From IMG/VR virus record IMGVR_UViG_3300042445_003239: a stretch of 64,000 nt of DNA; one strand, given 5' to 3'. The position numbers and the translations under genes were made by a program. Below, one piece after another: positions 11,692 to 63,267 of this stretch. Under the pieces are notes generated by a model. It had not been told where the DNA came from, did no database searches, and saw only the letters and a list, made by a program, of their open reading frames with translations. The stretch's first letter is position 1, and every line of letters begins with the position of its first letter. The DNA is from an uncultured virus (IMG/VR IMGVR_UViG_3300042445_003239). Taxonomy: Duplodnaviria > Heunggongvirae > Uroviricota > Caudoviricetes.

Positions 11692-12792
11692 ATGAATAAA
11701 AAAGCACTCATAACTGGTATTACTGGACAGGATGGTTCATATCTTGCCGAATTGCTTCTTGAAAAGGGCTATGAAGTTCATGGCATTAAACGCAGATCTT
11801 CATCCTTTAATACATCACGCATTGATCATCTTTATAAAGATCCGCATGAAGATAATAACATGTTTCATCTGCATTATGGCGATCTTTCAGATAGTTCAAA
11901 TCTAATAAGACTTGTCAAAGAAATTGAGCCTGATGAAATTTATAACTTAGGTGCACAATCTCATGTTGCTGTCTCATTTGATTTGCCAGAATATACTGCT
12001 GATGTTGATGCATTAGGATCATTGCGATTGCTTGAAGCAATTCGTTTTCTTGGATTAGAAAAAAAGACCCGTTATTATCAGGCATCAACATCTGAATTAT
12101 ATGGCAATGTACAAAACGAGATTCAAACCGAAAAAACTCCATTTTATCCTCGTTCCCCTTATGGAGTCGCTAAGCTATATGCATATTGGATAACAGTAAA
12201 CTATAGAGAAGCATATGGCATATATGCTTGTAATGGCATTCTTTTTAATCATGAATCACCTCGCCGAGGAGAAACCTTTGTAACGCGAAAAATAACGCGA
12301 GGCATAGCGAATATTGCTCTTGCTCTAGAAAAAACTTTATTTCTTGGTAATCTTAATGCATTAAGAGATTGGGGTCATGCTAAAGATTATGTTAGAATGC
12401 AATGGATGATGCTGCAACAAGATTCTCCTGATGATTTTGTTATTGCCAGTGGTAAACAAATTTCCGTAAGAGAATTTGTAAGAATGTCCGCAAAATATGC
12501 AGGCATTGAAATTGATTTTAAAGGCGAAGGCCTCGATGAAATTGGCATTGTTTCTGCCATTAGTGATTCATCAAAGGCAAGCGGTGTTAAAGTTGGTGAT
12601 ATTATTATACGAATCGATCCACAATATTTTCGACCAGCCGAAGTTGAAACATTGCTAGGCGATCCATCAAAAGCAATGGAAAAACTTGGTTGGAAACCCG
12701 AGATTAGTGTTGAACAAATGTGTGAAGAAATGATAATTCACGATTTAAGGGAAGCTAATCGCATGACTCTGCTTAAAGAAAATGGCTATTAA
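11692..12792 (+). CDS. gmd: GDP-mannose 4,6-dehydratase
   Basis: [64 protein letters not shown]. Confidence 0.97.
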
Positions 12793-13732
12793 TATGAAGA
12801 AATTATATATTGCCGGACACAACGGAATGGTAGGCTCTGCTTTAGTACGAGCTGTAGAAAAAAGTGACAAATATGAATTGATTGTTGCATCACGAGATCA
12901 GCTTGATCTGTTGGATCAAAGAGCAGTATTTGACTTTCTTAATGAAAAGAAACCAGATGTTGTTATTATTGCTGCCGCGAAGGTTGGAGGAATTCATGCA
13001 AATTCTCAATATCCAGCAGAATTTATATATGAGAATCTTACAATAGCTTCAAATATTATAGAGGGCAGTCGTCGCGCTAATGTACAACGGCTCTTAAACT
13101 TAGGAAGTTCTTGTATCTATCCTAAGCAATCACCTCAACCAATTAAAGAAAGTTATTTGCTTGAATCACAATTGGAAGTTACTAATGAAGCATATGCGGT
13201 TGCAAAAATTGCTGCACTAAAAATGTGCCAACACTATCGCAATCAATATGATCTTCTTTATCATTCTGCTATGCCTACAAATTTATATGGAACAGGTGAT
13301 AATTATCATCCTGAAAATAGTCACGTTGTTCCTGGACTTATTCGTCGCATTCATCAGGCTAAAATTGACCAATCACCAAGTGTAACTATTTGGGGTACAG
13401 GCAATCCTCGAAGAGAATTTTTGCATGTTGATGATCTTGCTGTTGCATGCATGACTCTTATTGAGCAAGCAAATCCACCTGATTGGATCAATATCGGCAC
13501 AGGCTATGATATTAGCATAAAAGAATTAGCTGAACTAATTATCGATATTGTTGGATTTAAAGGCACAATTGAAAATGATTATAGCAAAGCCGATGGCACT
13601 CCACAAAAACTTCTTGATGTAAGTCTATGTGAGCAGATGGGTTGGCGCGCCACAATATCTTTACGGGATGGTTTGGAGAGAGCCTATAGATCATTTCTTG
13701 AAGAAATTGAGTCAAAAACGCTAAGAATGTGA
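12782..13732 (+). CDS. fcl: GDP-L-fucose synthase
   Basis: [58 protein letters not shown]. Confidence 0.95.
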
Positions 13733-13743
13733 TCATTTTTCTA

Positions 13744-13772
13744 TTTACAATTGTCAGTAAATAGTGTATAAT
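13744..13772 (+). promoter_or_regulatory. early promoter
   Basis: TTTACA-17-TATAAT. Confidence 0.75.
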
Positions 13773-13790
13773 ATTGATGCAACCAATATT

Positions 13791-14027
13791 ATGAAAGCAT
13801 ACTTGACAGACATCCAAATGGACAGCCTCATTAATCGCGCTAAGGAAATGCGCAAAGGCAAAAAGCTACTACACGAGCAACGCAAAGCATATACAGTGAT
13901 TGCTGATGGCCATTTTGAATTTGCAACTCCAAAGACGCTGCGCAAGTTTTTGAGCGCATGCCGTTTTCCATCCGACTATCGCGTCTTTGTAAATTTTGAC
14001 AAAGGCATTACAATTGATCTTTCCTAA
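13791..14027 (+). CDS. hypothetical protein
   Basis: ORF after promoter, start ATG 13791. Confidence 0.5.
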   Translation: MKAYLTDIQMDSLINRAKEMRKGKKLLHEQRKAYTVIADGHFEFATPKTLRKFLSACRFPSDYRVFVNFDKGITIDLS

Positions 14028-14040
14028 CACAACACTACTT

Positions 14041-14586
14041 ATGAAAATATTCTGGGACATTGATGAAACATTGATTCATAGCCGCACTTATGAATCAAAA
14101 CTATATAAACATAACATACACTTTCGTTTAGACGGCGGCGAGGAGTATTTTACTTGTGTGCGTCCATGCTCGAAGGCGCTAATCCAATATAGTCGCACAC
14201 TTGTTGGTGAAGAAAATGTTCACATCTTGACCGCTGCTAGTTTTGACTATGCTAGGGAAATTTCACGCTTGGCGGAATGGGGCTTCTCAGATGAAGACAT
14301 CTTTTCGCGTGAGACGATGCAAAAGTATAGCATTCGCTTACAGAGTTTGTATGGCGTTGACAAAATTGTGAATCCGCATCCTTATGCAAATAAGAATAAT
14401 GTACTCATTGACAATTTGCTGCCAATGTGGAATGATGAAAAGACTACACTCATGGGCATTAATCCGCGGACTCACTATCTTAAAGTTGAAGACTATATGG
14501 GTGACAATAGCGATGAAGATATTTTTGCCGATATTGTAAAACACTTTTTGAACGAAAGACATAAAGAAGCAGGAGGAGCACAATGA
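14041..14586 (+). CDS. HAD-superfamily (NIF/FCP1-like) phosphatase
   Basis: WDIDETLIHS (DxDxT), VRP, LTAA, LIDN. Confidence 0.8.
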   Translation: MKIFWDIDETLIHSRTYESKLYKHNIHFRLDGGEEYFTCVRPCSKALIQYSRTLVGEENVHILTAASFDYAREISRLAEWGFSDEDIFSRETMQKYSIRLQSLYGVDKIVNPHPYANKNNVLIDNLLPMWNDEKTTLMGINPRTHYLKVEDYMGDNSDEDIFADIVKHFLNERHKEAGGAQ

Positions 14587-14996
14587 TTACATTTGATGAT
14601 AAAACAACAGAGGCTCTTGGGTATGTTCGCGAGGCAGAGAAAATCATGGCAGAACTTGGTCATACAAAATATTCGTTGAGTGGCATGTGTAGCGCAGCAA
14701 TGCGACACGATCTTGAGAAAGAAGTAGGCAAATTGTTGGGCAAACTCGTTGAGGCTCGAAAAGAAATAGAAAATCTTAACGGGATAATTACTGCCGCACT
14801 AAATAGTGCAAATGTAAGCCAACTTAGGGCGATTGAATATCAAAGTCAACGCGATATATTGGTTGAGGCTTTGGAGCGGTTTGATGTTGACTGGACTCTT
14901 GAAGAAGGAGAGGAAACAACCACGTATTTCACATATGAAGATCAACAAATACTAAGAGATGCCCTAGTCACAGCGGAAGGAGGGAGCCATGAGTGA
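14583..14996 (+). CDS. hypothetical coiled-coil protein
   Basis: 137-aa ORF with GGAGG SD; KLVEARKE...QRDILVEAL. Confidence 0.6.
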   Translation: MITFDDKTTEALGYVREAEKIMAELGHTKYSLSGMCSAAMRHDLEKEVGKLLGKLVEARKEIENLNGIITAALNSANVSQLRAIEYQSQRDILVEALERFDVDWTLEEGEETTTYFTYEDQQILRDALVTAEGGSHE

Positions 14997-15399
14997 GACA
15001 CCGATAACAGATGCACGAATGCCAGACCAAGTGTATAAGCGCACCATGTATGACCACATCCAAGTGATAGAACACGAACTTACCGAAGCGCGGAATATCC
15101 TAAAGCAGTGCCTATCAATCATGCCAGTCGGGTATGTCCCAACGCACACGGTGGAGAATCTACCTGAGATGATTGGCGACTTAACGAAAGCACTCGCTGA
15201 GGAAACAACGGAGCGCGAGAAGCTCGAACGCGAGCTTGCAGAGGCGCGGGAATGCGCTGAGATATTGCGCGACCAGTTGCAGGTTGTCGGAGAAATGTAT
15301 GCAGGTGGGAGAGTCCCTCCACTGCCTGAATTGCCATGGTCGCAACCTGATTTGTCGAGAGAGGCACTTATTGCCGCCGTGAAAGGAGGTGAATCATGA
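14989..15399 (+). CDS. hypothetical coiled-coil protein
   Basis: MSETPITDA...ELTEARN...ERELAEARE...AAVKGGES. Confidence 0.6.
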   Translation: MSETPITDARMPDQVYKRTMYDHIQVIEHELTEARNILKQCLSIMPVGYVPTHTVENLPEMIGDLTKALAEETTEREKLERELAEARECAEILRDQLQVVGEMYAGGRVPPLPELPWSQPDLSREALIAAVKGGES

Positions 15400-17847: not shown

Positions 17848-18154
17848 TTACCTTTATATGAAAAAGATCAAAACCAAAACATTTGACTATAGCCCAATCG
17901 CATTGCGCAAATTGGCACGTCATCTTTTTGCTCCGCCTGTGGTCTCTTACACTGACAAAAAGAAAAAAGAAAAACGAACACTCTGCCGTAAAAATTATGA
18001 ACACTGATATACTTCGTAGAAAAGCTCTAGGCCTTAATCTTAAAGGCAATCGCAATCGTCGCTATGCTGACGTCCTTCGCACAGAATATATTAAAGCATG
18101 TGCTTTATCTCTAACCCTAGTCTCCGCAATCATCACTCTAATCTCCTACATACT

Positions 18155-19264
18155 ATGATCAACTCTGAAGAATTTAATATCAAGCCAGTCAAGATTGGTG
18201 CACTAAAAGAAGACTTTTTTCTCGTGACTCCAAATGATATGGGTACCACATGGAATGACGGCAATGCACGCTATCGTAGTGCAATTGTCCGTGTATCTGA
18301 TGGTGCTGTTGTCTCTCAAGGCTTTGGCAAGTTTGTGAACTATGGCGAAAAGCCAGACTTTCAACCTTGGGATTCTTCATGGCCAATACAAGCACGTCAC
18401 AAGATGGATGGTAGCTTGCTTATTGTTTCGCGCTATAAGGATGAGCTTATTGTTCGCACTCGTGGTACTGTTGACGCACGCCAATTGCCAAACGGACACG
18501 AGATTGAAGTCCTAATGAGTAAATATCCACGAGTCTTTGACAAGATTAATCCATACTTGAAAGAATGGAGCTTGCTCTTTGAATGGACTACTCCTTCAAA
18601 TATCATTGTCTTGCGGGAGCATGACGAGCCGACTCTCACTATGCTTGGCGCTGTGGCAAACGATACTGCAGAATATATGACTCAAGCTAATGTTGATGTC
18701 GTCTCATTTTTGCTCGATGTACCACGACCAACTCCATATTATTATAGCAGCATTGAAGAATGTATCCGTGATGTTGAAGCATGGACTGGCAAAGAAGGTG
18801 TAGTGATCTATTCACCTGACTTTCAGACAATGAAAAAGATTAAGGCCGAAGCCTATCTAATGTTGCATCGTGTTGCAACTGGTGTGAAGGGTGTTAAGAA
18901 TGTACTTGACTTATGGCTTGCAGCGCCTGAACGATATGCTAGTGTTGAAGCCTTTTATAAGTATGTTGAGTCTACTCTTGACTACGAGATTGCAGAAAAG
19001 ATTAGCGATGAAATGCATGCTATAGTATCGGCATATCACGAGTTTGAAGCTGCGCATCGTGAACTGCTCCGCTTCATCTCTGTATATCATTCAACCCATG
19101 ACTCCACTGCAGCAGACTATCGTAAGAACTTTGCGCTGCTTGTGCAAGCGAATTATCCTGATTGGCGCAGTGGATTGGCATTCACTCTCTTCGTTGGCAA
19201 GACCATTGAAGAGCGTCAACTTAAAAATGCAATGCTTACTCTATTAGAAAATTATGGCAACTAA
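18155..19264 (+). CDS. RNA ligase, T4 Rnl1-like
   Basis: KFVNYGE, motif I KMDGSL, RTRG, LLFE, EGVV, KKIK. Confidence 0.85.
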   Translation: MINSEEFNIKPVKIGALKEDFFLVTPNDMGTTWNDGNARYRSAIVRVSDGAVVSQGFGKFVNYGEKPDFQPWDSSWPIQARHKMDGSLLIVSRYKDELIVRTRGTVDARQLPNGHEIEVLMSKYPRVFDKINPYLKEWSLLFEWTTPSNIIVLREHDEPTLTMLGAVANDTAEYMTQANVDVVSFLLDVPRPTPYYYSSIEECIRDVEAWTGKEGVVIYSPDFQTMKKIKAEAYLMLHRVATGVKGVKNVLDLWLAAPERYASVEAFYKYVESTLDYEIAEKISDEMHAIVSAYHEFEAAHRELLRFISVYHSTHDSTAADYRKNFALLVQANYPDWRSGLAFTLFVGKTIEERQLKNAMLTLLENYGN

Positions 19265-19523
19265 AAATGATATTACTGGAGATAGCATCGCATCTCGTGT
19301 GGCGACTCAAAGCTATCGCGATGGCTGGGATGCTATCTTCGCAAAGAAGACTGCAGAGCAATGGTTGAAAGATTCTGAGTTTGAGCATGTCTCTGCAATC
19401 ATAGATCCTGACGGATGGCGCATGGATGATACACCACTTGAAGCTCCATTGACACGCGCTGAATTTAGTCGGCGCTTAAACCATTGTACAATCCTAATGA
19501 AAAATAATCATGATTCGAATTAA
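19254..19523 (+). CDS. hypothetical protein
   Basis: MATKNDITGDSI...YRDGWDAIF; DPDGW. Confidence 0.65.
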   Translation: MATKNDITGDSIASRVATQSYRDGWDAIFAKKTAEQWLKDSEFEHVSAIIDPDGWRMDDTPLEAPLTRAEFSRRLNHCTILMKNNHDSN

Positions 19524-20166
19524 GAAAAATCGTAAAGACTATCACAACATCAAGTTTTGCAGTGACCTGCATTTTGGCCATGATAAAGATTTTGTCTATG
19601 CCAAACGCGGATTCAACAGCGCACGTGAGCATGCACTATGGCTCATTGACCAATTGGAGACACTGCACAGCGATGACCTGCTTGTGGTATTGGGCGATGT
19701 TGGTTTGAGTATCGGACCAGACTCTATTGCTGAACTTGTTCGTAGCCTTAAATGCGAAACACTTATGGTCTGGGGTAATCATAACAGCGGTGTTAAACAG
19801 CTTTATGATGCAGCACTGCCTGATGAATATAAGAGCTGTGAAATTTATCCGCTGCGGATTACTCACAATGTGACAATGCTTGGAGACTCTGCGATGCTGC
19901 ATGTTGACTCACGTCGTTACTATCTTACACATATGTGTCCGCTTGTATGGCCTGAGCTAGGCCGCGGTGCAGTTACACTCTGTGGACATAGCCATGGCTC
20001 GCTCAAAGGTATTAATGCACATCACAGTGTACATGACATTTACGGGCCGATCCTTGATTGTGGAATTGAAAACACTCTCTCATATAACAAGAGTGCATTT
20101 TTCACGGTTGAAGAGGTGGACACCATTCTCTCAGGCCGAAAAAAAGCTGCAATTGATCATCATTAA
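19510..20166 (+). CDS. calcineurin-like metallophosphoesterase
   Basis: SDLHFGH, LGD, GNH, GHSH motifs. Confidence 0.88.
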   Translation: MIRIKKNRKDYHNIKFCSDLHFGHDKDFVYAKRGFNSAREHALWLIDQLETLHSDDLLVVLGDVGLSIGPDSIAELVRSLKCETLMVWGNHNSGVKQLYDAALPDEYKSCEIYPLRITHNVTMLGDSAMLHVDSRRYYLTHMCPLVWPELGRGAVTLCGHSHGSLKGINAHHSVHDIYGPILDCGIENTLSYNKSAFFTVEEVDTILSGRKKAAIDHH

Positions 20167-20189
20167 GCCGTTTTAGGCGGTTTTTACAG

Positions 20190-20280
20190 AGTGAAAAACC
20201 TATACGTATCTATAGGTTTTTCACTTTTTTCACATTTTCATCATTTTTTGTTTTACAAGTATGTGTTTTTATGGTAGAAT
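20190..20280 (+). promoter_or_regulatory. stem-loop plus early promoter
   Basis: AGTGAAAAACCTATA-N6-TATAGGTTTTTCACT 20190-20225; TTTACA 20252-57, TAGAAT 20275-80. Confidence 0.8.
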
Positions 20281-20302
20281 AATCATGTAACCAAACCACA
20301 TT

Positions 20303-20683
20303 ATGAATCTATCAGAAATTAAGCAAGCAGTTCGTGAAGGCAAAACCGTTCATTGGGGCACCACGGCATATGTCGTAACTCTTTTCGAGAAAGGCGGAGA
20401 GGAATATTGGAACATCAAATGTCCTTGGAATAATTACTGCTTTGGCTTGACTGGTGCAAATGATACACTCGAATGCAAGGAAGAAGACTTCTTCATCGTG
20501 GCGTATTGCTCTCTCCCTTCACACGAAGAAATCTCGGAACAAATTTTAAAATTTGTAGATCTTTGCCTAAACACACCTGAGATGCATAACAGAGAATCAC
20601 TGGATATGCTTATTGCCGATCTGCAGCAATACCGAAACACTATTCCCACATGTGAGGAATATATGGAACAAAATCTGCTCTAA
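20303..20683 (+). CDS. hypothetical early protein
   Basis: MNLSEIKQAVREGKTVHW. Confidence 0.65.
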   Translation: MNLSEIKQAVREGKTVHWGTTAYVVTLFEKGGEEYWNIKCPWNNYCFGLTGANDTLECKEEDFFIVAYCSLPSHEEISEQILKFVDLCLNTPEMHNRESLDMLIADLQQYRNTIPTCEEYMEQNLL

Positions 20684-20878
20684 GAACTCGTAACTCAAAT
20701 AACACTATATATTATGATCAACGAAGAAATTGAATTTAATCTTATTGAAAAACGTATTCGCGAATTGAACAATATTGAGTGTCTCGACGAAGATCAACTA
20801 TTTGAATATACCGAATTGCTTCGTCAGCGTTGGGAACTTATGAAATCAATTCTTTGGGGTTAACATTAAACTTATATT

Positions 20879-21184
20879 ATGATCAGCGAAGAACGAGTTG
20901 AAACACTAAAGAGCGTCAAATCTCGCCAAGCCATTTGGACCGAATGGATGCGCCGCCTTGTTCGCTGGGGCTGGTTTGCATGTTTTCTTGGGAACCATGA
21001 GTGGTATCGTCGCCTCTACGGAGGTCTTTGGGCGCATGTCCACGTCGAGGAACCTTGCTACTCCTGCATGTGGCTCAACTGCCCCGTGGGTGCTGATGAA
21101 ACCTACCGCGAATGGAACTGGCGCGGCACTCCAGAGTTCCGCAATTACGATTCAGCGAACGCCTCTGTGGAGGCACGCCAATAA
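20879..21184 (+). CDS. hypothetical protein; AT-rich N-terminus fused to first cassette
   Basis: RRLVR at 20951-65 is encoded by an attC 3' arm; stop lies in the loop of the next attC. Confidence 0.6.
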   Translation: MISEERVETLKSVKSRQAIWTEWMRRLVRWGWFACFLGNHEWYRRLYGGLWAHVHVEEPCYSCMWLNCPVGADETYREWNWRGTPEFRNYDSANASVEARQ

Positions 21185-21239
21185 CGACTATGAATACACC
21201 AACAGACTCCGAGGCGTTGCCTCTCACGAATTGTTCGGC
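21154..21239 (-). repeat. attC-like site 1
   Basis: AGCGAAC...GTG-GAGGCA-CGCC / GGCG-t-TGCCTC-t-CAC...GTTCGGC. Confidence 0.85.
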
Positions 21240-21456
21240 TTCTTTGATTCCGCACTTAACCTTCAAAGATTACAATGGAGGAACAATGCGTGAGTGGCGA
21301 ATCTTCTGCCAAAGCGGGTGCGGTGGTGAGGGGTTTTACTGTAAGACCAAGGCTGAATGCGTGGAACAGGCGTGGTCTGCTGGGTGGCGTGTTTTTAGTG
21401 GAAAGCCCAAATGTAATAATTGTCTGCCGAACAGGCAAGATCAGGAGCGGCAATAG
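21190..21456 (+). CDS. cassette ORF, Cys-rich (CxxxC...CxxC)
   Basis: ATG in loop of attC1, stop TAG at the apex of attC2. Confidence 0.6.
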   Translation: MNTPTDSEALPLTNCSASLIPHLTFKDYNGGTMREWRIFCQSGCGGEGFYCKTKAECVEQAWSAGWRVFSGKPKCNNCLPNRQDQERQ

Positions 21457-21482
21457 CCGTGTTCTGTATCGACATGTTCAAT
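21426..21482 (-). repeat. attC-like site 2 (57 bp)
   Basis: GCCGAAC...GAT-CAGGA-GCGGC-aata-GCCGT-g-TTCTG-t-ATC...GTTCAAT. Confidence 0.75.
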
Positions 21483-21492
21483 TTACAACAAT

Positions 21493-21804
21493 ATGAAAAC
21501 AGAATCAGACTCAAATAACACGGCGGGCGCGGTTGCTCAGGAGCGACTTGTTCGGTGTGTTTGGAATAACCTAGCGGCTTCGCTAATCTGCACGCCCTTG
21601 CTCAGTGGAATCACTGTATTCACATACGGGCTAGGCGGTCATGCTGACTTAGTTGCATGGTGCGCTGCTGCCCTCGGACTGTCCGTTGGATGGATGGCGG
21701 GACTGTGTGGCGTGCTCGTTGTAATTTCTTCACCGAACGTCGATGTGATGGCATCGCTGCCGAACGCAAAGCACACGCACCCGCCCACTCAAAACCATGA
21801 ATAA
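21493..21804 (+). CDS. cassette ORF, membrane protein
   Basis: QERLVR from an attC 3' arm (GTTCGGT 21550-56); two hydrophobic helices. Confidence 0.6.
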   Translation: MKTESDSNNTAGAVAQERLVRCVWNNLAASLICTPLLSGITVFTYGLGGHADLVAWCAAALGLSVGWMAGLCGVLVVISSPNVDVMASLPNAKHTHPPTQNHE

Positions 21805-21846
21805 AGAACAGACTTCCAGCGGGTTGCGTGATGCGGCTTGTTGTGC
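21759..21846 (-). repeat. attC-like site 3
   Basis: GCCGAAC...GCA-CACGCA-CCCGC / GCGGG-t-TGCGTG-a-TGC...GTTGTGC. Confidence 0.88.
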
Positions 21847-22075
21847 CGTTGATTTTGACGGGTGGCCTTTTGTGGTCACTATCGACCGCAACAGGATGGA
21901 ACGCAGATATGTCCTGAGAACGGTTGATACCACAGACGGATTGATGGCTGCAAGAAACGATCCGATGACGGGGGAAGAGTTCAGGGAACACTACGGATTC
22001 AGCGAGGAGTTCCCGCACGAATTTATTCAGCACAACGCCCAAGGTGACTTACAGAGTCCCGACAAAAAATCATGA
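21797..22075 (+). CDS. cassette ORF, hypothetical
   Basis: Start in attC3 loop, stop in attC4 loop. Confidence 0.6.
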   Translation: MNKEQTSSGLRDAACCAVDFDGWPFVVTIDRNRMERRYVLRTVDTTDGLMAARNDPMTGEEFREHYGFSEEFPHEFIQHNAQGDLQSPDKKS

Positions 22076-22127
22076 ATACACCAAAAGACCCAACGGGAGG
22101 CTGTTGTCCTCCACCGCCTTGTTCGCC
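22030..22127 (-). repeat. attC-like site 4 (imperfect stem)
   Basis: GCACAAC...GGTG..ACAG..TCCCG / CGGGA..CTGT..CACC...GTTCGCC. Confidence 0.7.
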
Positions 22128-22740
22128 ATTTGTGGTTCACTGCAAACGGTCGAAGCATGACGTGTGTATCGGCAGGCCGTCGAAATGGGGAAACCCGTTT
22201 GAGATTGGGAAGGACGGCGACCGGGAAACCGTGATCCGAAAATACCGTGAATGGGTAGTAACTCAACCGCATCTCATGGCTGCGCTGCATGAACTGCGCG
22301 GAAAAGTGTTGGGGTGCTGGTGCGCTCCGCAAGCCTGCCACGGGGACGTTCTTGTTTCTTTGGCGAACGATCAAGGTGAGGCACGGGCGGAAAGCGCCAC
22401 TCCGATACCTCATAAACTCTCTAAGCACATGGAAACTTCGACACACACCGCCCCGCCCGTTGTCCTCGACCACCTTGTTAGCTCTTCTTGGGCGATTCGG
22501 TTCCTCAAGGAATGTCCCACGGGATACAAGGAGGCGATTCGACGAGCAGGGGAACCCGTGGAAATATACGAAACCGACGAGACGGGAGATGTCCAGTGGG
22601 CGATTACGTTGGAGGACGGATTCTGGATGGATGCGCTACCAACTAAGGAGGAGGCCGAGAGTCTTGTGGCTGATATGGGATGGCCGATTATTGGAGCTAA
22701 CGTCGAGGTAGCCCACGAATCGGGCGAGAAAAGATCATGA
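22072..22740 (+). CDS. DUF4326-like domain fused in frame through attC5 to a second cassette ORF
   Basis: VVHCK...IGRPSKWGNPF...LRGKVLGCWCAPQACHGDVL; in-frame ATG at 22429 in attC5 loop. Confidence 0.75.
   Translation: MNTPKDPTGGCCPPPPCSPFVVHCKRSKHDVCIGRPSKWGNPFEIGKDGDRETVIRKYREWVVTQPHLMAALHELRGKVLGCWCAPQACHGDVLVSLANDQGEARAESATPIPHKLSKHMETSTHTAPPVVLDHLVSSSWAIRFLKECPTGYKEAIRRAGEPVEIYETDETGDVQWAITLEDGFWMDALPTKEEAESLVADMGWPIIGANVEVAHESGEKRS
22362..22483 (-). repeat. attC-like site 5
   Basis: GGCGAAC...GGT-GAGGCA-CGGGCGG / CCGCCCG-t-TGTCCTC-g-ACC...GTTAGCT. Confidence 0.82.
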
Positions 22741-22792
22741 ATACAAAACCAACTCCACCGCCCGATTCGTTGGGCTCACCGTCTTGTGGTGC
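22695..22792 (-). repeat. attC-like site 6
   Basis: AGCTAAC...GGT-AGCCCA-CGAATCGGGCG / CGCCCGATTCG-t-TGGGCT-c-ACC...GTGGTGC (GTT core changed to GTG). Confidence 0.88.
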
Positions 22793-23096
22793 TTCTTCCG
22801 AACCCGAGTGGAAGCCCGACTACACAAAGACCCCTCGCCGCGTGGTATGCGCTGCTAATCGGCACCGTGTGAACAAGCTGCTAATCATCTGCGGTGCTCG
22901 GCACTGGGACAAGCTCATGAGGGTGCAAGCCAATGCTATGGGTCACGACTTCAAAGCATGGGATCAAGGATTCGTGGATCAGTTCGGGGACTGGATGACC
23001 CGTGAAGAAGCGTGGATCGTCGCCGTCGATCAGAACCAAGTCCGTCGACGCTGCGGGGGCGATGGCGAGCGGCTGTTCAGCGAGAACCTTTATTAG
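22737..23096 (+). CDS. cassette ORF, conserved phage-type hypothetical protein
   Basis: VVCAANR...GARH.D...QGFVDQFG..MTREEA...LFSENLY. Confidence 0.75.
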   Translation: MNTKPTPPPDSLGSPSCGASSEPEWKPDYTKTPRRVVCAANRHRVNKLLIICGARHWDKLMRVQANAMGHDFKAWDQGFVDQFGDWMTREEAWIVAVDQNQVRRRCGGDGERLFSENLY

Positions 23097-23149
23097 CACA
23101 ACAGCCAAGCACAGGCACGCCCAGCGTTGCTTGATGCGGAATGTTCGGA
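23096..23149 (-). repeat. attC-like site 7 (54 bp)
   Basis: GCACAAC...GCA-CAGGCA-CGC-cca-GCG-t-TGCTTG-a-TGC...GTTCGGA. Confidence 0.85.
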
Positions 23150-23164
23150 ACAACAAACAATAAA

Positions 23165-23362
23165 ATGAACCAACACCTCAAGAAAACAATCACAAAGATA
23201 CGTCGTCAGCGAAGAAACGGAAGGTCTAACAAGAAAAGCATTCAAAAAGGACACGTCCACAAATGGAATCTCGGATGCACAATCATTATCGGGAAAAGAA
23301 CCCCCATGAGGTATCATTGGTGCTATTGCGGAGACCATAGAACAACTGAAATAAACTCATGA
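23165..23362 (+). CDS. cassette ORF, small basic protein
   Basis: MNQHLKK...HVHKW...HWCYCG. Confidence 0.45.
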   Translation: MNQHLKKTITKIRRQRRNGRSNKKSIQKGHVHKWNLGCTIIIGKRTPMRYHWCYCGDHRTTEINS

Positions 23363-23425
23363 CTGGTCTCGAAGAAATGACAGACAAAAACAGAGAAGAG
23401 AAAATAGCAAGGCTGCGAGTTCTCT

Positions 23426-23517
23426 GCCGAACGACAAAGATCTGGCGCGGCGGGCGCTGGACTCCGAATAAACCAAACAGGCAACTTCCCGCCGTTGCCA
23501 GCATTCACTTGTTAGCC
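23426..23517 (-). repeat. attC-like site 8
   Basis: GCCGAAC...GAT-CTGGCG-CGGCGGG / CCCGCCG-t-TGCCAG-c-ATT...GTTAGCC. Confidence 0.85.
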
Positions 23518-23528
23518 TCTTACGAATT

Positions 23529-23726
23529 ATGAAGAAACTCCGCAAACTAAAAACAGGTAGCCGCCAATGGCTTGCACAACTCATGGAAACCGTAATCGGG
23601 GAATGCCCCGAACTGGTCGAATGCGACCATTGCGGGCGAGTAATCCGAAACGGGTATGTCTGCTGCCACTGCGGAAGCGATGACCCTGGTGAAAACATCA
23701 TCCGCCCCGAGGAATTTCTTGGCTAA
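23529..23726 (+). CDS. cassette ORF, zinc-ribbon protein
   Basis: CDHC...CCHC; stop TAA inside the GGCTAAC core of attC9. Confidence 0.6.
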   Translation: MKKLRKLKTGSRQWLAQLMETVIGECPELVECDHCGRVIRNGYVCCHCGSDDPGENIIRPEEFLG

Positions 23727-23852
23727 CGCCACAGCGCAGACACCGCCGATCTACAACCAAACAAACGACCAAAACACCAATGAACTCTGAATTGCCAAAC
23801 GATACCCAAAACACCAGCAACAAGGCGGTTGATCTGCCGCGACTTGTTCGGC
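23721..23852 (-). repeat. attC-like site 9
   Basis: GGCTAAC...GCG-CAGACA-CCGCC / GGCGG-t-TGATCTG-c-CGC...GTTCGGC; the minus strand reads GCCGAACAAGTCGCGGCAG...GGCGTTAGCC. Confidence 0.85.
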
Positions 23853-24124
23853 TTCTTGCGGTGGCTCAACCAGTGATGGAAGCATGGGCAAAATACCACG
23901 AACTGGACGAGTGGCATTGTCGCTGCGAAGACATGATCGGCACGGCATACCCGCGCAATCTCTGCCCCGTGTGCTGTGTGGAGTCCTCGATCAACTGGCG
24001 GGACGGTAAGCCGTATTACTACTGCCCCGATCACGGCGAACTGGATGACCTTTATTCTGAGCCGAACGCACAAGGTGAGGCACGCGGCGAGAGCGCCACT
24101 CCGACCACGCCCAAACCTCAGTAA
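23780..24124 (+). CDS. cassette ORF, Cys/His zinc-finger-like
   Basis: Start in attC9 loop; CPVC...CPDHG; ends within the partial site at 24061. Confidence 0.6.
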   Translation: MNSELPNDTQNTSNKAVDLPRLVRLLAVAQPVMEAWAKYHELDEWHCRCEDMIGTAYPRNLCPVCCVESSINWRDGKPYYYCPDHGELDDLYSEPNAQGEARGESATPTTPKPQ

Positions 24125-24256
24125 CTACCATGGAAAATCAAATTGGTGATGACGAATGTGGATATTGGGAAAGATACGAATATGATGATGAAGGCAACGA
24201 GATACTACACGAAAGCTTGATCCAATCATCTGTTAGACTTGAAGACGACGAAAATT

Positions 24257-24484
24257 ATGAAACATTTACAAGACATCCCTTGCTTTGATTGCGACGGCAC
24301 TCTGCGTGTCGAATATCAGAAGTTCGACAAAACGGTCGAAGGACAAAACTATGTTGTGGAGAATGTGCCTGTTCATAAGTGTGACTCTTGCGGAGATGAA
24401 GTCTTAAGCTCTGCGGCATGTCGCTACATTGAAGAACAGCTACCGCCTCGTCCACTGCGTGGCCCACGGCGCATCAAGGACTAA
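24257..24484 (+). CDS. YgiT/MqsA-type zinc-finger protein
   Basis: CFDCDG...VVENVPVHKCDSCGDEVLS. Confidence 0.8.
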   Translation: MKHLQDIPCFDCDGTLRVEYQKFDKTVEGQNYVVENVPVHKCDSCGDEVLSSAACRYIEEQLPPRPLRGPRRIKD

Positions 24485-24514
24485 AAAAGTCTCCCCAAGG
24501 AGTATTTTTGTGAA

Positions 24515-24570
24515 AAAAATGCATTTTTTCGCATTTTTTTATTTACAAGTGTGCATTTTTGTGGTAGAAT
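24515..24570 (+). promoter_or_regulatory. early promoter (PeSL-like family)
   Basis: AAAAAATGCATTTTTT palindrome; TTTACA 24542-47, TAGAAT 24565-70. Confidence 0.8.
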
Positions 24571-24592
24571 AATCTTGTAACCAAATCACATC

Positions 24593-24745
24593 ATGACCGA
24601 TAATAAAGAATACTACGAAATGTTCGCCGCCGTTCAAAGAGGCGAGATCACTCAAGAGGCTTGGGTTGACTACTGCATGAAGCTGCTCGCTGATATCATG
24701 GAAGACAACAAAGATGTCTTCATCCGTTTGAAGTACCGCGGCTAA
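24593..24745 (+). CDS. small hypothetical early protein
   Basis: MTDNKEYYEMF...VFIRLKYRG, 50 aa, after promoter. Confidence 0.6.
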   Translation: MTDNKEYYEMFAAVQRGEITQEAWVDYCMKLLADIMEDNKDVFIRLKYRG

Positions 24746-24768
24746 ACGAACTCTGATACAATATCATT

Positions 24769-25002
24769 ATGACCAAAGTAACTCCTGAAGAAATCGCGAT
24801 CCTTAAACGTATCGCTGCAATTGAGAGCATCTCCCACACAGTCGAACGGATGTGTAATGTTGAGGATTATGATTGTTTTTACTCACGTGTCCACGGTAAG
24901 TCTTTTGAATGGTGTGCGCGCTATGATAGCTTTGAAGACTTCATTCGCGATTACGCTAAATTCAAATATGAATGCGGCTACCAAACTGCAGCAAGTTGGT
25001 AA
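24769..25002 (+). CDS. hypothetical protein
   Basis: ORF starts at the repeat ATG. Confidence 0.6.
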   Translation: MTKVTPEEIAILKRIAAIESISHTVERMCNVEDYDCFYSRVHGKSFEWCARYDSFEDFIRDYAKFKYECGYQTAASW

Positions 25003-25599: not shown

Positions 25600-25911
25600 A
25601 TGAACACGTCTGAAGCAATACAAATCATTAAGCGTAACAAGTGGAAAGTAGTCAAGCTCGACTCCGGTAACTTCAATGTTCTCCATTTTAGCTGGAGTGA
25701 TTACAAAGAATATACGCCTCGTAAGCTTATTGAATTGGCACGTTGCTATACGCATGACAATAAGCGTGCAACTAATATTAATCAAAGCACAAAGGACGAG
25801 CATAACAGTAAGAATCGTGCAGCAACTCGCGATGCATTGAATGTCGCCGACTATGACGCTATTCCGCTTGACGCTCCAACAAAAAGTGGTAACCGCTGGA
25901 ACTGGGATTGA
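25600..25911 (+). CDS. hypothetical protein
   Basis: 103-aa ORF ending RWNWD. Confidence 0.6.
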   Translation: MNTSEAIQIIKRNKWKVVKLDSGNFNVLHFSWSDYKEYTPRKLIELARCYTHDNKRATNINQSTKDEHNSKNRAATRDALNVADYDAIPLDAPTKSGNRWNWD

Positions 25912-25913
25912 AT

Positions 25914-26922
25914 ATGAATATTAACGATAAAATAAATCTCTCAGTTAATGTCTCTGTTTGGGGCTCAGTTTATGGCTCAGTTAGTGACTCAGTACATGGC
26001 TCAGTCTATGACTCTGTTAGGGACTCTGTTAATGCTCAAATGTTAGAATATAATTATGACTACTGAAGAAAAAATATTGAAATCTGTTTGGGTCTCTGTT
26101 GGGGTCTCTGTTGGGGTCTCTGTTGGGAACTCTGTTTGGAACTCTGTTTGGGACTCTGTTGGGGTCTCTGTTTGGAACTCTGTTTGGAACTCTGTTAGGG
26201 TCTCTGTTAGGGACTCTGTTAATGCGCAGATGCTAGAATATAATTATGACTACTGAAGAAAAAATATTGAAATCTGTTTGGGTCTCTGTTTGGAACTCTG
26301 TTGGGGTCTCTGTTGGGGTCTCTGTTTGGGACTCTGTTTGGGACTCTGTTTGGGACTCAGTACATAGCTTAGTACATGTCTCAGTACATGTCTCTGTTCG
26401 TAGCTCAGTTAGAGACTCGGTTAGTAACTCAGTTTGGAGCTCAGTACATGGCTCAGTTTGGAACTTAGTTGAGAGCTCAGTTGAGAACTCTGTTAACGCT
26501 ACAATGAAAGAATATGGATATTAAACGGGAAATAGATCTCTCAGTCGAAAAATCAGTTAGCGGCTCAGTTTGGGACTCAGTTAATAACTCAGTTTATGAC
26601 TCAGTTGATATCTCAGTTTGGAACTCAATACATCGCTCTGTTTGGAACTCAGTTATGAACTCAGTTATGAACACAGTTAACGCTACAATAGTAGAATATG
26701 AATATAGGATACGCAATAAATGAAGCTCTGTATGAGCATGTGTGGAAGTGTGTACAGAGTGAATGTAGACAAACAGCAGCAGATCAAACCACACCATACA
26801 TAAGCACTAGCGTATATGATTCGATAGGATTCAAAATTGACAATATACTTTGTGGGGATATAGCTCTTGAAGTAAGAAGAATTATAACGAAGGAAAAATA
26901 TGAATATCCAAGAACATCTTAG
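25914..26922 (+). repeat. tandem array of five SVxx-family mini-ORFs (25914-26066, 26056-26256, 26246-26524, 26514-26723, degenerate 26698-26922)
   Basis: 12-nt unit CTC(A/T)GTTNNNNN; EY(N/G/E)Y ends overlap the next ATG. Confidence 0.8.
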
Positions 26923-62565: not shown

Positions 62566-63267
62566 ATGAAGATAGCTCGCAAATGTTTCAAGCACACTCC
62601 TGTTAAGCTAGATTATGACGATCTTGATGCAGTCACTGGAAAAACTGGACGCCAATATGTTACACCAGACGGACGTCGTTATCCTAGCATTACAACAGTA
62701 TTAAGTGTACTTAGCAAGGATGGTATACGTGAATGGCGCGCACGTGTAGGCGAAGAAGAAGCAAATCGTGTTATGCGGCATGCTGCAACACGTGGTACTG
62801 CAATGCATACCATTGCAGAGCGTTATCTTAATAATGAAGAGCACTATTTTGATCCTCAAGAAATGCCTCACGTGAAGGGTATGTTTGGCGCAATACAAAC
62901 TATCATTGACGCAAACATTGATGAAGTTGTGCTACAAGAATGTCCTCTTTATAGCAATCATCTTGGCGTTGCAGGTCGTGTGGATCTTGTTGCAAAATTT
63001 AATGGTAAACATAGTATTGTTGACTTTAAGACAAGCTCTCGTGTAAAGACACGTGATCATATACAGAGCTATTTCATGCAGGCTGCAGCATATGCAATCA
63101 TGTTTGAAGAACGCACTGGTATACCTGTGCCACAACTAGTAATACTTATGGCCGTTGAAAATTCAACAGAGCCTCTCGTTTTTGTTGAGAAGAGAGACAC
63201 CTGGGTTCCTGGGTTGATAGATACAATAAATGAATACAATAAAAGTAAACTATTCGGACATGCATAA
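62566..63267 (+). CDS. PD-(D/E)xK exonuclease
   Basis: YPSITTVLS, RGT.MH, AGRVD, VDFKTS, YFMQ..AYA. Confidence 0.88.
   Translation: MKIARKCFKHTPVKLDYDDLDAVTGKTGRQYVTPDGRRYPSITTVLSVLSKDGIREWRARVGEEEANRVMRHAATRGTAMHTIAERYLNNEEHYFDPQEMPHVKGMFGAIQTIIDANIDEVVLQECPLYSNHLGVAGRVDLVAKFNGKHSIVDFKTSSRVKTRDHIQSYFMQAAAYAIMFEERTGIPVPQLVILMAVENSTEPLVFVEKRDTWVPGLIDTINEYNKSKLFGHA

Follow-up and report, generated by a model that had tools for sequence, protein, structure and literature searches.

In canonical integrons, a cassette consists of a top-strand ORF followed by its own attC, and the junction lies between G and TT of the coding-strand 3' box. On the attC bottom strand, the arm opposite AAC has extrahelical bases, one (usually G) at position 16 and a conserved T at 23/24, and 6 bp separate the first from the last, as set out in the relevant passages of PMC5027507. 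In class 1 integrons, ORF-11 in attI1 and short attC ORFs relieve the stem-loop barrier by termination-reinitiation, according to the passages of PMC8876359 that treat them. Clusters of attC in phages are already published: CALINs were described in virulent phages, and 5/6 phage attC were recombined by IntI1 (Qi et al., 2023; PMC9892861, main text). The term 'start codon' does not occur in that main text, and inverted genes, loop starts and phase-locked junctions are undescribed in it; its supplementary tables may hold cases. PeSL promoter/stem-loop motifs flank variable genes in T4-type phages (PMC2839356 and PMC4122927). The inverted layout with loop starts analyzed here was not found in print.

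The window (the whole stretch of DNA analyzed, 64,000 nt) was taken from a source contig of 100.8 kb rated 51% complete. It contains a GC-rich island at 20879-24125 (51-55% GC vs ~38% in the rest of the AT-rich phage contig) that is absent from a related phage (L066). GC climbs from the first island ORF (20879) onward, and the whole island, genes included, is foreign in composition. Nine full attC-like hairpins, packed into 2.7 kb, and two to three half-hairpins lie at + strand gene junctions. We consider it likely that 20879-24125 is a run of about ten integron-type cassettes, a CALIN, within a single transcription unit of a lake phage whose genome is large and AT-rich. CALINs comprise at least two serial attC with no integrase nearby; the island has nine full sites, and no integrase was found in the contig. 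The intI, attI and Pc that stand beside the array of a complete integron are not present here. As in the CALINs of Qi et al. (PMC9892861, main text), attC clusters are found in lytic phages that lack an integrase. The sites are listed below; full-site coordinates begin 4 nt ahead of AAC and finish with the last base of the GTT box.

20252..20280, + strand: promoter-like site, TTTACA, 17 nt, TG-TAGAAT (10/12 matches).
~20945-20967, + strand: degenerate 3' half-site (3' arm), sequence read directly; inside the first island ORF, read as RRLVRW.
21154-21239, + strand: site A ('type A'); stop TAA 21182-21184 and ATG 21190 in a 33-nt loop.
21426-21482, + strand: site B, short 57-nt form; stop TAG 21454-21456 in loop, next ATG 21493, 11 nt downstream.
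21525-21556, + strand: 3'-arm remnant (half-site) inside ORF 21493..21804, downstream of site B.
21759-21846, + strand: site C; the loop contains ATG 21797 and stop TAA 21802-21804; A16 and T23 are extra bases.
22030-22127, + strand: site D; ATGA overlap 22072-22075 in loop.
22362-22483, + strand: site E; the loop contains ATG 22429; G16, T21 and T24 of the 3' arm are unpaired.
22695-22792, + strand: site F; ATGA overlap 22737-22740 in loop; most stable hairpin (z -4.4).
23096-23149, + strand: site G, short 54-nt form with a 3-nt loop; next ATG 23165 outside the hairpin.
23426-23517, + strand: site H; next ATG 23529, 12 nt downstream; overlaps a doubtful 57-aa ORF (23359-23532).
23721-23852, + strand: site I; the A/C-rich loop of 76 nt contains ATG 23780; C16, A21 and T24 are extra bases.
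24058-24124, + strand: right-end half-site, sequence read directly; 5' arm and partial loop of an E-type attC.

The hairpins carry attC bottom-strand geometry on the coding strand. On the + strand, the 5' arm contains AAC and the 3' arm GTT; the 3' arm also has an extra base at 16 and, separated from it by 6 bp, an extra T at 23/24. AAC is invariant in 9/9 sites and GTT is present in 8/9 (GTG in F); in an alignment of the nine sites, AAC, GTTG and TGT are invariant. When AAC:GTT pairing was imposed, 7/9 sites folded with an unpaired base at ~16, an unpaired T at 23/24 and 6 bp between (A, C, F, I and E, with H and D fitting more loosely). The T at 23/24 was unpaired in 7/7 correctly anchored folds (B and G were mis-anchored and left out), and a base at or around position 16 was unpaired in A, C, F, I, E and H. 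Site A has an extra T at 3'-arm positions 16 and 23 with a 6-bp stem between (folding z -2.2). A TT doublet was counted at 22-23 or 23-24 in 9/9 aligned sites. By folding energy alone, 3/9 hairpins stood out (z -2.2, -2.2 and -4.4), and six of nine folded no better than shuffled sequence (z -0.8 to +0.1).

As in class 1 and sedentary chromosomal integrons, the sites are imperfect hairpins, here 54-132 nt long, that have AAC/GTT as outer boxes, a spacer that tends to be poorly paired and a loop of variable size; one arm carries extra bases at 16 and 23/24, separated by 6 bp. For attC, lengths of 57-141 bp and a variable terminal structure are expected; loops here span 3 to 76 nt. An attC also has an unpaired central spacer of ~5-6 nt per arm. 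Here, A, C, F and I have 2-4 unpaired bases at positions 9-12, H has a spacer of 8 nt, and in D and E the spacer is shifted. The type A hairpin resembles aadA-type attC even in sequence (...ACGAATTGTT...), and the short site G, with its 3-nt loop, resembles mobile-integron attC. The sites differ from canonical ones in that position 16 is rarely G and in that the typical outer boxes, GCCGAAC and GTTCGGC, are each one position off RYYYAAC/GTTRRRY; GGCTAAC, AGCTAAC and GTTAGCC boxes were found too.

A strict geometric scan gave 5 matches on the + strand of the island and 0 on the - strand of all 64 kb. One further + strand match (63008) is probably false, 2 matches were obtained in 30 shuffles of the island, and sites B, D, F and G were missed. 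On plasmid R100, the geometry scanner placed the aadA1 attC on the opposite strand to the gene. Across 80 IntI1-type loci, the expected bottom strand gave 65 sites, compared with 5 for the opposite strand and 7 for reversed sequence. A narrow covariance model was built from 18 canonical 60-nt aadA-type attC bottom strands. Its three best matches in the 64-kb window were all on the + strand of the island (B, 18.9 bits, E 0.01; G, 16.3 bits, E 0.059, with the whole model matched; A, E 3.4); these E-values are marginal only, and 6/9 island sites were missed.

A family scan of 71 phage and metagenome loci yielded 63 unique sites vs 16 in reversed controls. In addition, 307 candidates were picked by sequence boxes alone, and arm pairing was then tested with the own or a swapped partner. 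At least 9/10 positions were paired in 18 of 307 candidates with their own partner arm vs 1/6112 swapped. The bulged base was T in 18/18 of these well-paired candidates, T not having been required in selection. Position 16 was C in 10, A in 4, G in 2 and T in 2 of them, and in canonical sites G in 44, C in 12 and T in 9. The sequence-only reading had placed hairpins at these junctions and taken the + strand as the attC bottom strand. Both points held: sites A-I were located, the nine-site alignment and the strict scan exceed chance, and the folds and the scan show bottom-strand geometry on the coding strand (definitions from the passages of PMC5027507 cited above). Since the coding strand has this geometry, the genes are inverted relative to canonical cassettes, as had been claimed; the R100, IntI1-locus and start-codon controls agree.

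The + strand ORFs of the island tile end to end, with stops overlapping starts, as follows.

20879..21184, + strand: first island ORF, 101 aa; stop in the loop of site A.
21190..21456, + strand: cassette ORF, 88 aa; leader MNTPTDSEALPLTNCSA from the loop and 3' arm of site A.
21493..21804, + strand: cassette ORF, 103 aa; 89% identity over 263 bp with a cassette of L099.
21797..22075, + strand: cassette ORF, 92 aa, from the ORF listing.
22072..22740, + strand: ORF of 222 aa, two cassettes fused in frame; DUF4326 (22072-22428) and an uncharacterised body from ATG 22429.
22737..23096, + strand: cassette ORF, 119 aa, phrog_839; stop TAG directly before the AAC box of site G.
23165..23362, + strand: cassette ORF, 65 aa, A-rich, from the ORF listing; no family match in domain and phrog searches.
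23529..23726, + strand: cassette ORF, 65 aa, CxxC pairs; stop TAA inside the AAC box of site I.
23780..24124, + strand: last cassette ORF, 114 aa; tail ...PNAQGEARGESATPTTPKPQ from the right-end half-site.

The 222-aa ORF spans site E, which has no in-frame stop between its two flanking cassettes, and matches DUF4326 (E 5e-28, residues 22-95) and phrog_464. Were the real genes on the - strand, in canonical orientation, the + ORFs would be accidental open frames. We give this almost no credence. GC-rich DNA does open long frames on both strands, and several - strand ORFs of 90-148 aa are present. Against it stand the + strand matches to DUF4326, phrog_464 and phrog_839, the tiling of the + ORFs, and the conservation of the + strand island proteins in 64 viral loci. 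For the DUF4326 and phrog_839 cassettes, - strand genes were rejected on these family matches. Family matches lie on the site strand in L125 as well (MT-A70 and two N6_N4 methylases), and DNA methyltransferase cargo is shared with the phage CALINs of Qi et al. (PMC9892861, main text). A crude open-frame test of gene direction across the family gave 31 vs 14 only.

Because the mobile unit is an attC followed by its gene, the gene is predicted usually to take its start ATG from the loop of its own attC, with its first 15-25 codons supplied by the 3' arm. An in-frame open ATG inside the hairpin was found in 44/54 family sites (10 and 9 in the other two phases) vs 3/65 canonical attC. The six loop ATGs named earlier (21190, 21797, 22072, 22429, 22737 and 23780) are all in loops and in frame with + ORFs, and the ATGA overlaps were recovered at 22072 and 22737. 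As a rule for every gene the earlier wording is too strong, because the start codon lies within the hairpin at 6/9 window sites and the next ATG lies 11-16 nt past the hairpin at B, G and H. The 3' arm is translated in two different frames, LVR or CS.

Gene bodies usually lack their own stop, cross the junction with AAC read as Asn, and end in the loop or 5' arm of the next attC. AAC was a codon of the upstream ORF, in one phase, in 53/58 family sites, and the upstream stop lay in the loop in 38/58 and in the 5' arm in 10/58, as the proposed entry of upstream ORFs into the left arm had it; some sites of relatives are fully intergenic. The PN/AN/HN tails are real, AAC being an Asn codon at A-F and at the right-end half-site (7/10 5' boxes). 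Canonical cassettes differ in start position, in this lack of body stops and in the phase of AAC. The systems of PMC8876359, in the passages concerned, likewise have a recombination site with a start codon and downstream cassette translation coupled to nearby termination. They differ in using short top-strand ORFs as helpers to a cassette whose own start is retained. The cassette protein here is predicted to begin in the site, with the arm translated into it.

Comparison with related phage and lake contigs indicates that the mobile unit is the hairpin plus the downstream gene. Its layout is C of AAC, 5' arm, loop, 3' arm, GTTCGGC, gene body and ...CCGAA, that is, attC then ORF on the bottom strand with the junction at AAC of the coding-strand 5' box, unlike the canonical order. 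As with integron cassettes, there is one gene per unit, units are in tandem, and the junction is at AAC. Homology between related contigs breaks exactly at AAC. L091, L097 and L098 have 305 bp in common (89-92% identity) with unrelated DNA on either side, a stretch that opens with the AAC of a type A hairpin and closes at the following ...GGCCGAAC. This one cassette carries three tails, ...GWPNH, ...GWPNAESIHPESKP or ...GWPNSPITGATASGASESSNRPAP, which bears out the proposal that reshuffling swaps C-terminal tails. Breaks at AAC were also found in L122/L138 (100% over 353 bp), L126/L142 (99.7% over 685 bp), L125/L136 and L105/L129; L105 holds a near-identical copy of site H. Block ends fell within 8 nt of a shared AAC in 16/37 cases on the right and 11/38 on the left. 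Lake contig X17 joins 22031 to 23100 (AAC boxes of D and G), three cassettes being absent, and in the lake contig comparison loose ends start exactly at 21160 and 23100.

The type A hairpin recurs in 16 other contexts. One hairpin type precedes at least nine unrelated gene bodies, homology stopping just after GTTC, and crossover at AAC alone does not account for this. The idea of attC as a portable start module gains from these nine bodies; it loses in that the loop ATG belongs to the cassette's own attC, because the unit is hairpin plus downstream gene, and is no start passed on to any cassette that happens to follow. The array ends, and several block ends in relatives, fall in loops beside ATG, away from AAC, so a second, non-site-specific process acts too. 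The right-end half-site (82% identity over 50 nt with the site E 5' arm and loop) breaks off 5 nt upstream of the start codon of the AT-rich phage gene that follows (24130), and the first island ORF is chimeric, its initial ~22 nt repeating the start of the phage gene at 20714. The island would have entered the phage by illegitimate recombination inside two loops, beside start codons, which would leave a half-site at each end.

The same loop ends and the recurrence of one hairpin type before many bodies would suit conserved linkers of a phage gene pool, shuffled by homology or microhomology in co-infection; the hairpin would then work chiefly at the mRNA level, by coupling stop to start or by influencing processing or stability. 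PeSLs, which are intergenic and combine promoter with terminator, are exchanged by homologous recombination. Like the sites here, they are conserved, structured motifs that flank small variable genes where the genomes of large lytic phages are plastic, and they are regarded as a means of exchanging genes as modules that needs no dedicated integrase. They are not known to have attC geometry, a crossover at AAC or a coding role. This precedent (PMC2839356 and PMC4122927), the lack of an integrase in 18/18 phage records and the joint presence of stop and start in the loop at most sites are also on the side of linkers. Blocks end exactly at AAC, however, and are followed by unrelated hairpin types that share ~6-8 nt, too little for homologous exchange. 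The unpaired bases stand at attC-defining positions on one strand only, by a rule that calls real attC 65 vs 5, and a role in RNA alone leaves the invariant AAC/GTT unexplained. We therefore regard linkers that are not integron sites as unlikely.

Rickettsia palindromic elements are inserted into genes and translated as parts of proteins. Hairpins of that kind (REP/RAYT-like elements or IS200/IS605 ends), placed between or into genes as miniature mobile elements, would be imperfect palindromes with a bulged T, present in many copies of one type and translated in part, as the LVR and CS frames are. We judge this very improbable, as the moving unit is hairpin plus gene and not the hairpin alone, the foreign composition extends to the genes, and no transposase was seen in searches confined to PF00589 and an IntI profile.

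Under the favored reading as integron-type cassettes, the recombination step is without a known enzyme here, since no tyrosine recombinase was found. PF00589 gave 0/1, 0/5 and 0/12 in phage records (18 total; six at least 90% complete), the IntI profile had 0 matches among 1585 ORFs of 73 loci, and neither matched in the whole 100.8-kb contig, which is 51% complete. A tyrosine recombinase of the IntI/Xer kind would act in trans, coming from the host or the unsampled half of the genome. Excision and joining of cassettes would take place at the A-C step of AAC, in + strand DNA that is single-stranded and folded; the ending of shared blocks at AAC is indirect evidence for this.

The promoter-like site at 20252..20280 heads the transcription unit that contains the island and has a 33-nt near-twin at 24542-24574 (0 expected by chance). 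The genes of this phage lack Shine-Dalgarno sites; Shine-Dalgarno-like words precede 5/60 long ORFs, the same as at random positions. The overall interpretation first offered from the sequence is supported in part. The array may be transcribed by read-through from the site at 20252, and translation would begin in the A/C-rich unpaired loop independently of a Shine-Dalgarno site, coupled to the ending of the upstream ORF only a few bases off.

The virus record comprises 100,774 bases (completeness rating 51%), of which the window is a part, and all convincing ORFs of the window were found on the + strand. GC content in 1-kb steps was 31–46% in the AT-rich window versus 51–55% at 21001–24000, within the GC-rich island (20879–24125). 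The island and its surroundings were annotated as follows.

Features of the island and its upstream region
18098–19264, + strand, T4-type RNA ligase gene, upstream of the island
19510–20166, + strand, metallophosphatase gene, upstream of the island
20252–20280 and 24542–24570, near-identical pair of promoter-like sites with the island between them
~20945–20967, half-site (3' arm)
21154–21239, + strand, attC-like hairpin, site A
21426–21482, + strand, attC-like hairpin, site B
21525–21556, half-site (3' arm)
21759–21846, + strand, attC-like hairpin, site C
22030–22127, + strand, attC-like hairpin, site D
22362–22483, + strand, attC-like hairpin, site E
22695–22792, + strand, attC-like hairpin, site F
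23096–23149, + strand, attC-like hairpin, site G
23426–23517, + strand, attC-like hairpin, site H
23721–23852, + strand, attC-like hairpin, site I
24058–24124, half-site (5' arm and loop)

In the related phage L066, the RNA ligase and metallophosphatase genes were 73–75% identical to those of the window and quite different AT-rich genes occupied the island position; the island is thus an insertion specific to this lineage. BLAST searches of the phage collection with island and left-flank sequence, in near and distant modes, returned zero matches, and the sole match in an Rfam search of 20000–25000 (tsr25) was sub-threshold and outside the island. T-rich hairpin-like stretches at 20190–20230 and 24490–24535, seen by eye and absent from the terminator scan, preceded both promoter-like copies, so that the island would occupy a unit bounded by terminator and promoter. 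A contig joint from 20257 to 24564 (three runs) was not counted because one side spanned 22 nt only, inside the repeated promoter motif. Degenerate tandem or dispersed repeats (65–91% self-similarity) were observed at 25906–26705, within + strand ORFs rich in GSVY/DSV motifs. A Shine-Dalgarno-like word stood ahead of 5 of 60 long window ORFs, the same as at random positions, i.e., no Shine-Dalgarno signal; from this absent signal, the host may be Bacteroidota-like.

Gene junctions in the island carried nine full imperfect hairpins (A–I) plus two to three half-sites. Alignment of the nine sites showed three invariant elements: AAC (5' arm), GTTG and TGT (both 3' arm). The six start codons that the sequence-only reading had placed in hairpin loops were present, as were its two ATGA overlaps; the loop-start layout held for those six and did not extend to sites B, G and H, where the next ATG lay 11–16 nt behind the hairpin. 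The observation of an inverted array with stop and start codons in attC-like hairpins is confirmed. At 7 of 10 boxes the reading phase of the 5' arm was CCG AAC (Pro-Asn), which gave PN/AN/HN...EAR tails; the 3' arm was translated in two different phases, one giving LVR and the other CS. What is conserved is therefore the DNA, not the peptide. Site E was without an in-frame stop, so that the DUF4326 cassette and one with an unknown body formed a single 222-aa ORF. The right-end copy at 24058–24124, related to site E by 82% over 50 nt, retained an in-frame TAA in its loop that site E has lost, and with this loss the DUF4326 cassette became fused to the next. A reading of site B as one 131-nt hairpin (21426–21556) was given up for a 57-nt site with a 3'-arm remnant behind it, on the strength of block-end comparison and a covariance-model match. 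Between the 21493 cassette and its relative in locus L099, homology set in within the loop, immediately past the GTT of short site B (21483), and the 3'-arm remnant (21525–21556) came after this junction. The arrangement suggests that the 5' half of a longer attC was displaced by a short one.

Gene capture and shuffling are classically ascribed to integrons, whose cassettes are held to consist of a promoterless gene followed by its attC site and have been studied almost only in bacteria. The limits of the mobile unit were read from shared blocks in related phage and metagenome loci. A 305-bp block (89–92% identity) was common to L091, L097 and L098; it opened with the AAC of a type A hairpin (the type of site A) and ended exactly past the next ...GGCCGAAC, with unrelated flanks on both sides and three following hairpins of three different types. 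As these loci were retrieved by the type A pattern, their common upstream hairpin is partly a product of selection; the break past the downstream AAC is not. One gene thus ended in three different C-terminal tails across the three loci, as expected if reshuffling swaps tails, which had been proposed from the window. Blocks also ended or started at AAC in L122/L138 (100% over 353 bp), L126/L142 (99.7% over 685 bp and 99.6% over 1717 bp), L125/L136 and L105/L129, and block ends fell within 8 nt of a shared AAC in 16/37 cases on the right and 11/38 on the left. In a lake metagenome contig (run X17; shorter side 61 nt), 22031 was joined to 23100 with three cassettes skipped; the AAC boxes at these positions (sites D and G) are identical. 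In other contigs from lake metagenomes with the phage, the match to the window broke off exactly at 21160 and 23100. Among sequencing runs, 24 were listed for lakes with the phage, and no RNA run was listed for this stretch. The block breaks and the contig joint at AAC identify the unit as a hairpin and the gene behind it, AAC-bounded on the coding strand. Judged from sequence, this unit is an integron cassette read on the bottom strand, and the extrahelical-base position agrees independently. The longest open frame behind R'' was larger on the opposite strand in 48 canonical controls and on the same strand in 8, versus 14 and 31 in the phage family; by this crude measure the phage genes lean towards the inverted arrangement proposed (gene behind its hairpin on the bottom strand; canonical controls on the other strand).

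According to the portions of Nivina et al. (2016; PMC5027507) that treat attC structure, the bottom strand carries AAC in the 5' arm (R'), with extrahelical bases opposite the AAC arm at position 16 (usually G) and at a conserved T 23/24, a 6-bp stem between them, a central spacer of 5–6 nt, a variable terminal loop and a total length of 57–141 bp. Island sites were folded with AAC:GTT pairing imposed; B and G were mis-anchored in that fold and re-read later. Unpaired bases were T16 and T23 in site A (six pairs between), A16 and T23 in site C, C16 and T23 in site F, C16, A21 and T24 in site I, and G16 (within 14–17), T21 and T24 in site E; T23 was retained in sites H and D. G was rare at position 16, the outer boxes were one position off the RYYYAAC/GTTRRRY consensus, and folding was no better than shuffles for 6 of the 9 hairpins. 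RNAalifold on a MAFFT alignment of the nine sites, with 5' arms misaligned, gave 0 pairs. A duplex-energy hairpin finder was dropped: few sites were recovered, and the optimal duplex favoured a shifted CAAG/CTTG pairing.

A strict scanner derived from attC rules gave 5 matches in the island on the + strand (2 in 30 island shuffles), missing sites B, D, F and G, and zero on the − strand of the whole 64-kb window; one extra match, at 63008, is probably false. On plasmid R100 it found the aadA1 attC on the strand opposite the gene. From 80 IntI1-type loci of bacterial genomes, 65 unique sites were recovered on the bottom strand, as expected, and 5 on its complement; reversed sequence gave 7. The scanner is considered valid on real integrons because of the R100 site and the 65 versus 5 strand count. 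That the bottom strand is the coding strand, as the sequence-only reading had it, is upheld by the extrahelical-base positions and by scanner hits in the island on the + strand only. A covariance model, narrow in being built from 18 canonical 60-nt attC bottom strands, placed its three best matches in the 64-kb window all on the + strand of the island, with marginal E-values (B, 18.9 bits, E 0.01; G, 16.3 bits, E 0.059; A, 10.3 bits, E 3.4); the remainder were weaker and scattered. The loose pattern GTTGN{11,14}TGTK was not enriched over control in five phage records, and the phage-type box pair (CSGAAC...TTGTTCG) was absent from 80 integron loci.

The 3' arm of site A recurred exactly in 10 viral loci; its inner part alone matched 18 viral loci, representing 16 distinct contexts, as well as 35 from metagenomes. 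As an exact 22-mer, the arm had 0 matches in bacterial and archaeal genomes (185,579 species, one genome each). The leader MNTPTNSEALPLTNCSA preceded at least nine unrelated gene bodies, homology stopping just past GTTC(GGC), and a DUF4326 body occurred behind three different leaders. Over 71 loci, the scanner returned 63 unique sites of many sequence types versus 16 in reversed controls. For a pairing-independent test, 307 candidates were picked by box sequence alone; at least 9 of 10 positions paired with the candidate's own partner arm in 18/307 and with swapped partners in 1/6112, and the bulged base was T in all 18 well-paired candidates. Family-wide IUPAC patterns captured just 2–15% of known sites at useful specificity. 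Some relatives were entirely intergenic, with the ATG behind the hairpin (L088). A recurrent hairpin type, translated as ...GATASGASQSSNRP(A)P tails, was noted in L088 (2640–2715 and 3950–4015) and L098; it has its own small inner hairpin (CACCGG...CCGGTG) and escaped the scanner. In L002 (3040–3085), a tandem heptamer (ACGAATA-like, ~6 copies) stood immediately 5' of the loop ATG, and the cassette there started without a 5' arm.

In 53 of 58 family sites the upstream ORF included AAC as a codon, and that ORF stopped in the loop (38), the 5' arm (10) or the 3' arm (2), or read through (5). An in-frame open ATG lay within the hairpin in 44 of 54 family sites with a downstream ORF of at least 40 codons (other two phases, 10 and 9), compared with 3/65 for canonical attC. 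Loops were A/C-rich (A 36%, C 29%, G 20%, T 15%). The unpaired A/C-rich loop would provide a putative Shine-Dalgarno-independent start, coupled to the adjacent stop. Class 1 integrons supply the nearest precedent for such stop/start coupling, in the helper ORFs that lie within their attI1 and attC (reviewed in PMC8876359).

Recombinase searches covered PF00589 and an own IntI profile. No tyrosine recombinase was found in this contig by either profile, none by PF00589 among 17 further phage records carrying sites of this kind, of which six were at least 90% complete, and no IntI profile match was found in 73 loci; without an integrase, the array is therefore a CALIN (cluster of attC sites lacking an integrase). 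The array ends fell in loops beside start codons. At the left end, ~22 nt including the start codon, TATATTATGATCA[A/G]CGAAGAA, were repeated at 20705–20727 and 20870–20892, one copy at the head of a phage gene (20714) and the other at that of the first island ORF (20879); the first island protein therefore begins with a copy of the phage gene's first codons, and the repeat looks like the scar of an insertion event. At the right end, an E-type site was truncated 5 nt ahead of a phage ATG. Other arrays, those of L002 and L083 among them, likewise started in a loop beside a start codon. From these loop-placed ends, entry into the phage backbone looks illegitimate; exchange within arrays looks site-specific.

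Recognisable cargo in the window was limited to DUF4326/phrog_464 and phrog_839. With at least 8 sites, the metagenome contig L125 had the longest related array; its cargo comprised an MT-A70 and two N6_N4 DNA methyltransferases, together with a DUF5662 protein and a Lar-like protein (sub-threshold match). The ORF directly behind this eight-site array (12452–15307) held a Hint/homing-endonuclease (intein) segment. Given the DNA methyltransferases in relatives' cargo, the cassette pool probably matters for phage counter-defence.

A full-text literature search, partly judged by title, returned no paper on inverted cassettes starting in the attC loop. Qi et al. (2023; PMC9892861) reported 17 CALINs in phages and recombination of 5/6 phage attC sites by IntI1; in the main text, the term 'start codon' was absent and orientation was described as typical or divergent only. 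The hairpins here have attC-type geometry; in contrast to canonical integrons, the cassettes reside in lytic phages in which no integrase was found, and the gene is turned round. Unlike in canonical cassettes, the recombination site itself holds the predicted start and the first codons of the protein, the stop comes from the neighbouring cassette, and the crossover triplet is in frame.

The structural part of this account (coding strand as bottom strand, inverted cassettes, swapped tails) is supported by the sequence comparisons; the functional part (translation start module, promoter, recombinase) is what we infer from them. As a tentative overall reading, which we consider possible rather than probable, lytic phages of Shine-Dalgarno-poor (probably Bacteroidota) hosts might share their own inverted attC-type cassette pool, in which the site would serve as a stop/start translation module. 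With AAC in one phase, any cassettes could be joined and neither protein broken, hairpin leaders and tails would be swapped between unrelated proteins, and the pool would be run by an Xer-like enzyme of host or phage, or by nothing that the phage encodes, instead of a classical integron integrase. If this pool exists, one hairpin type re-attached to many gene bodies just past GTTC would be a visible trace of cassette making. Recombination and translation would be linked in one element, which could explain the expression of promoterless, Shine-Dalgarno-less cassettes wherever they landed. Each reshuffling of cassettes rewrites protein ends, and the family offers natural material for the questions of how attC sites attach to genes, with one hairpin type on at least nine unrelated bodies, and of which enzyme moves cassettes where IntI is absent.
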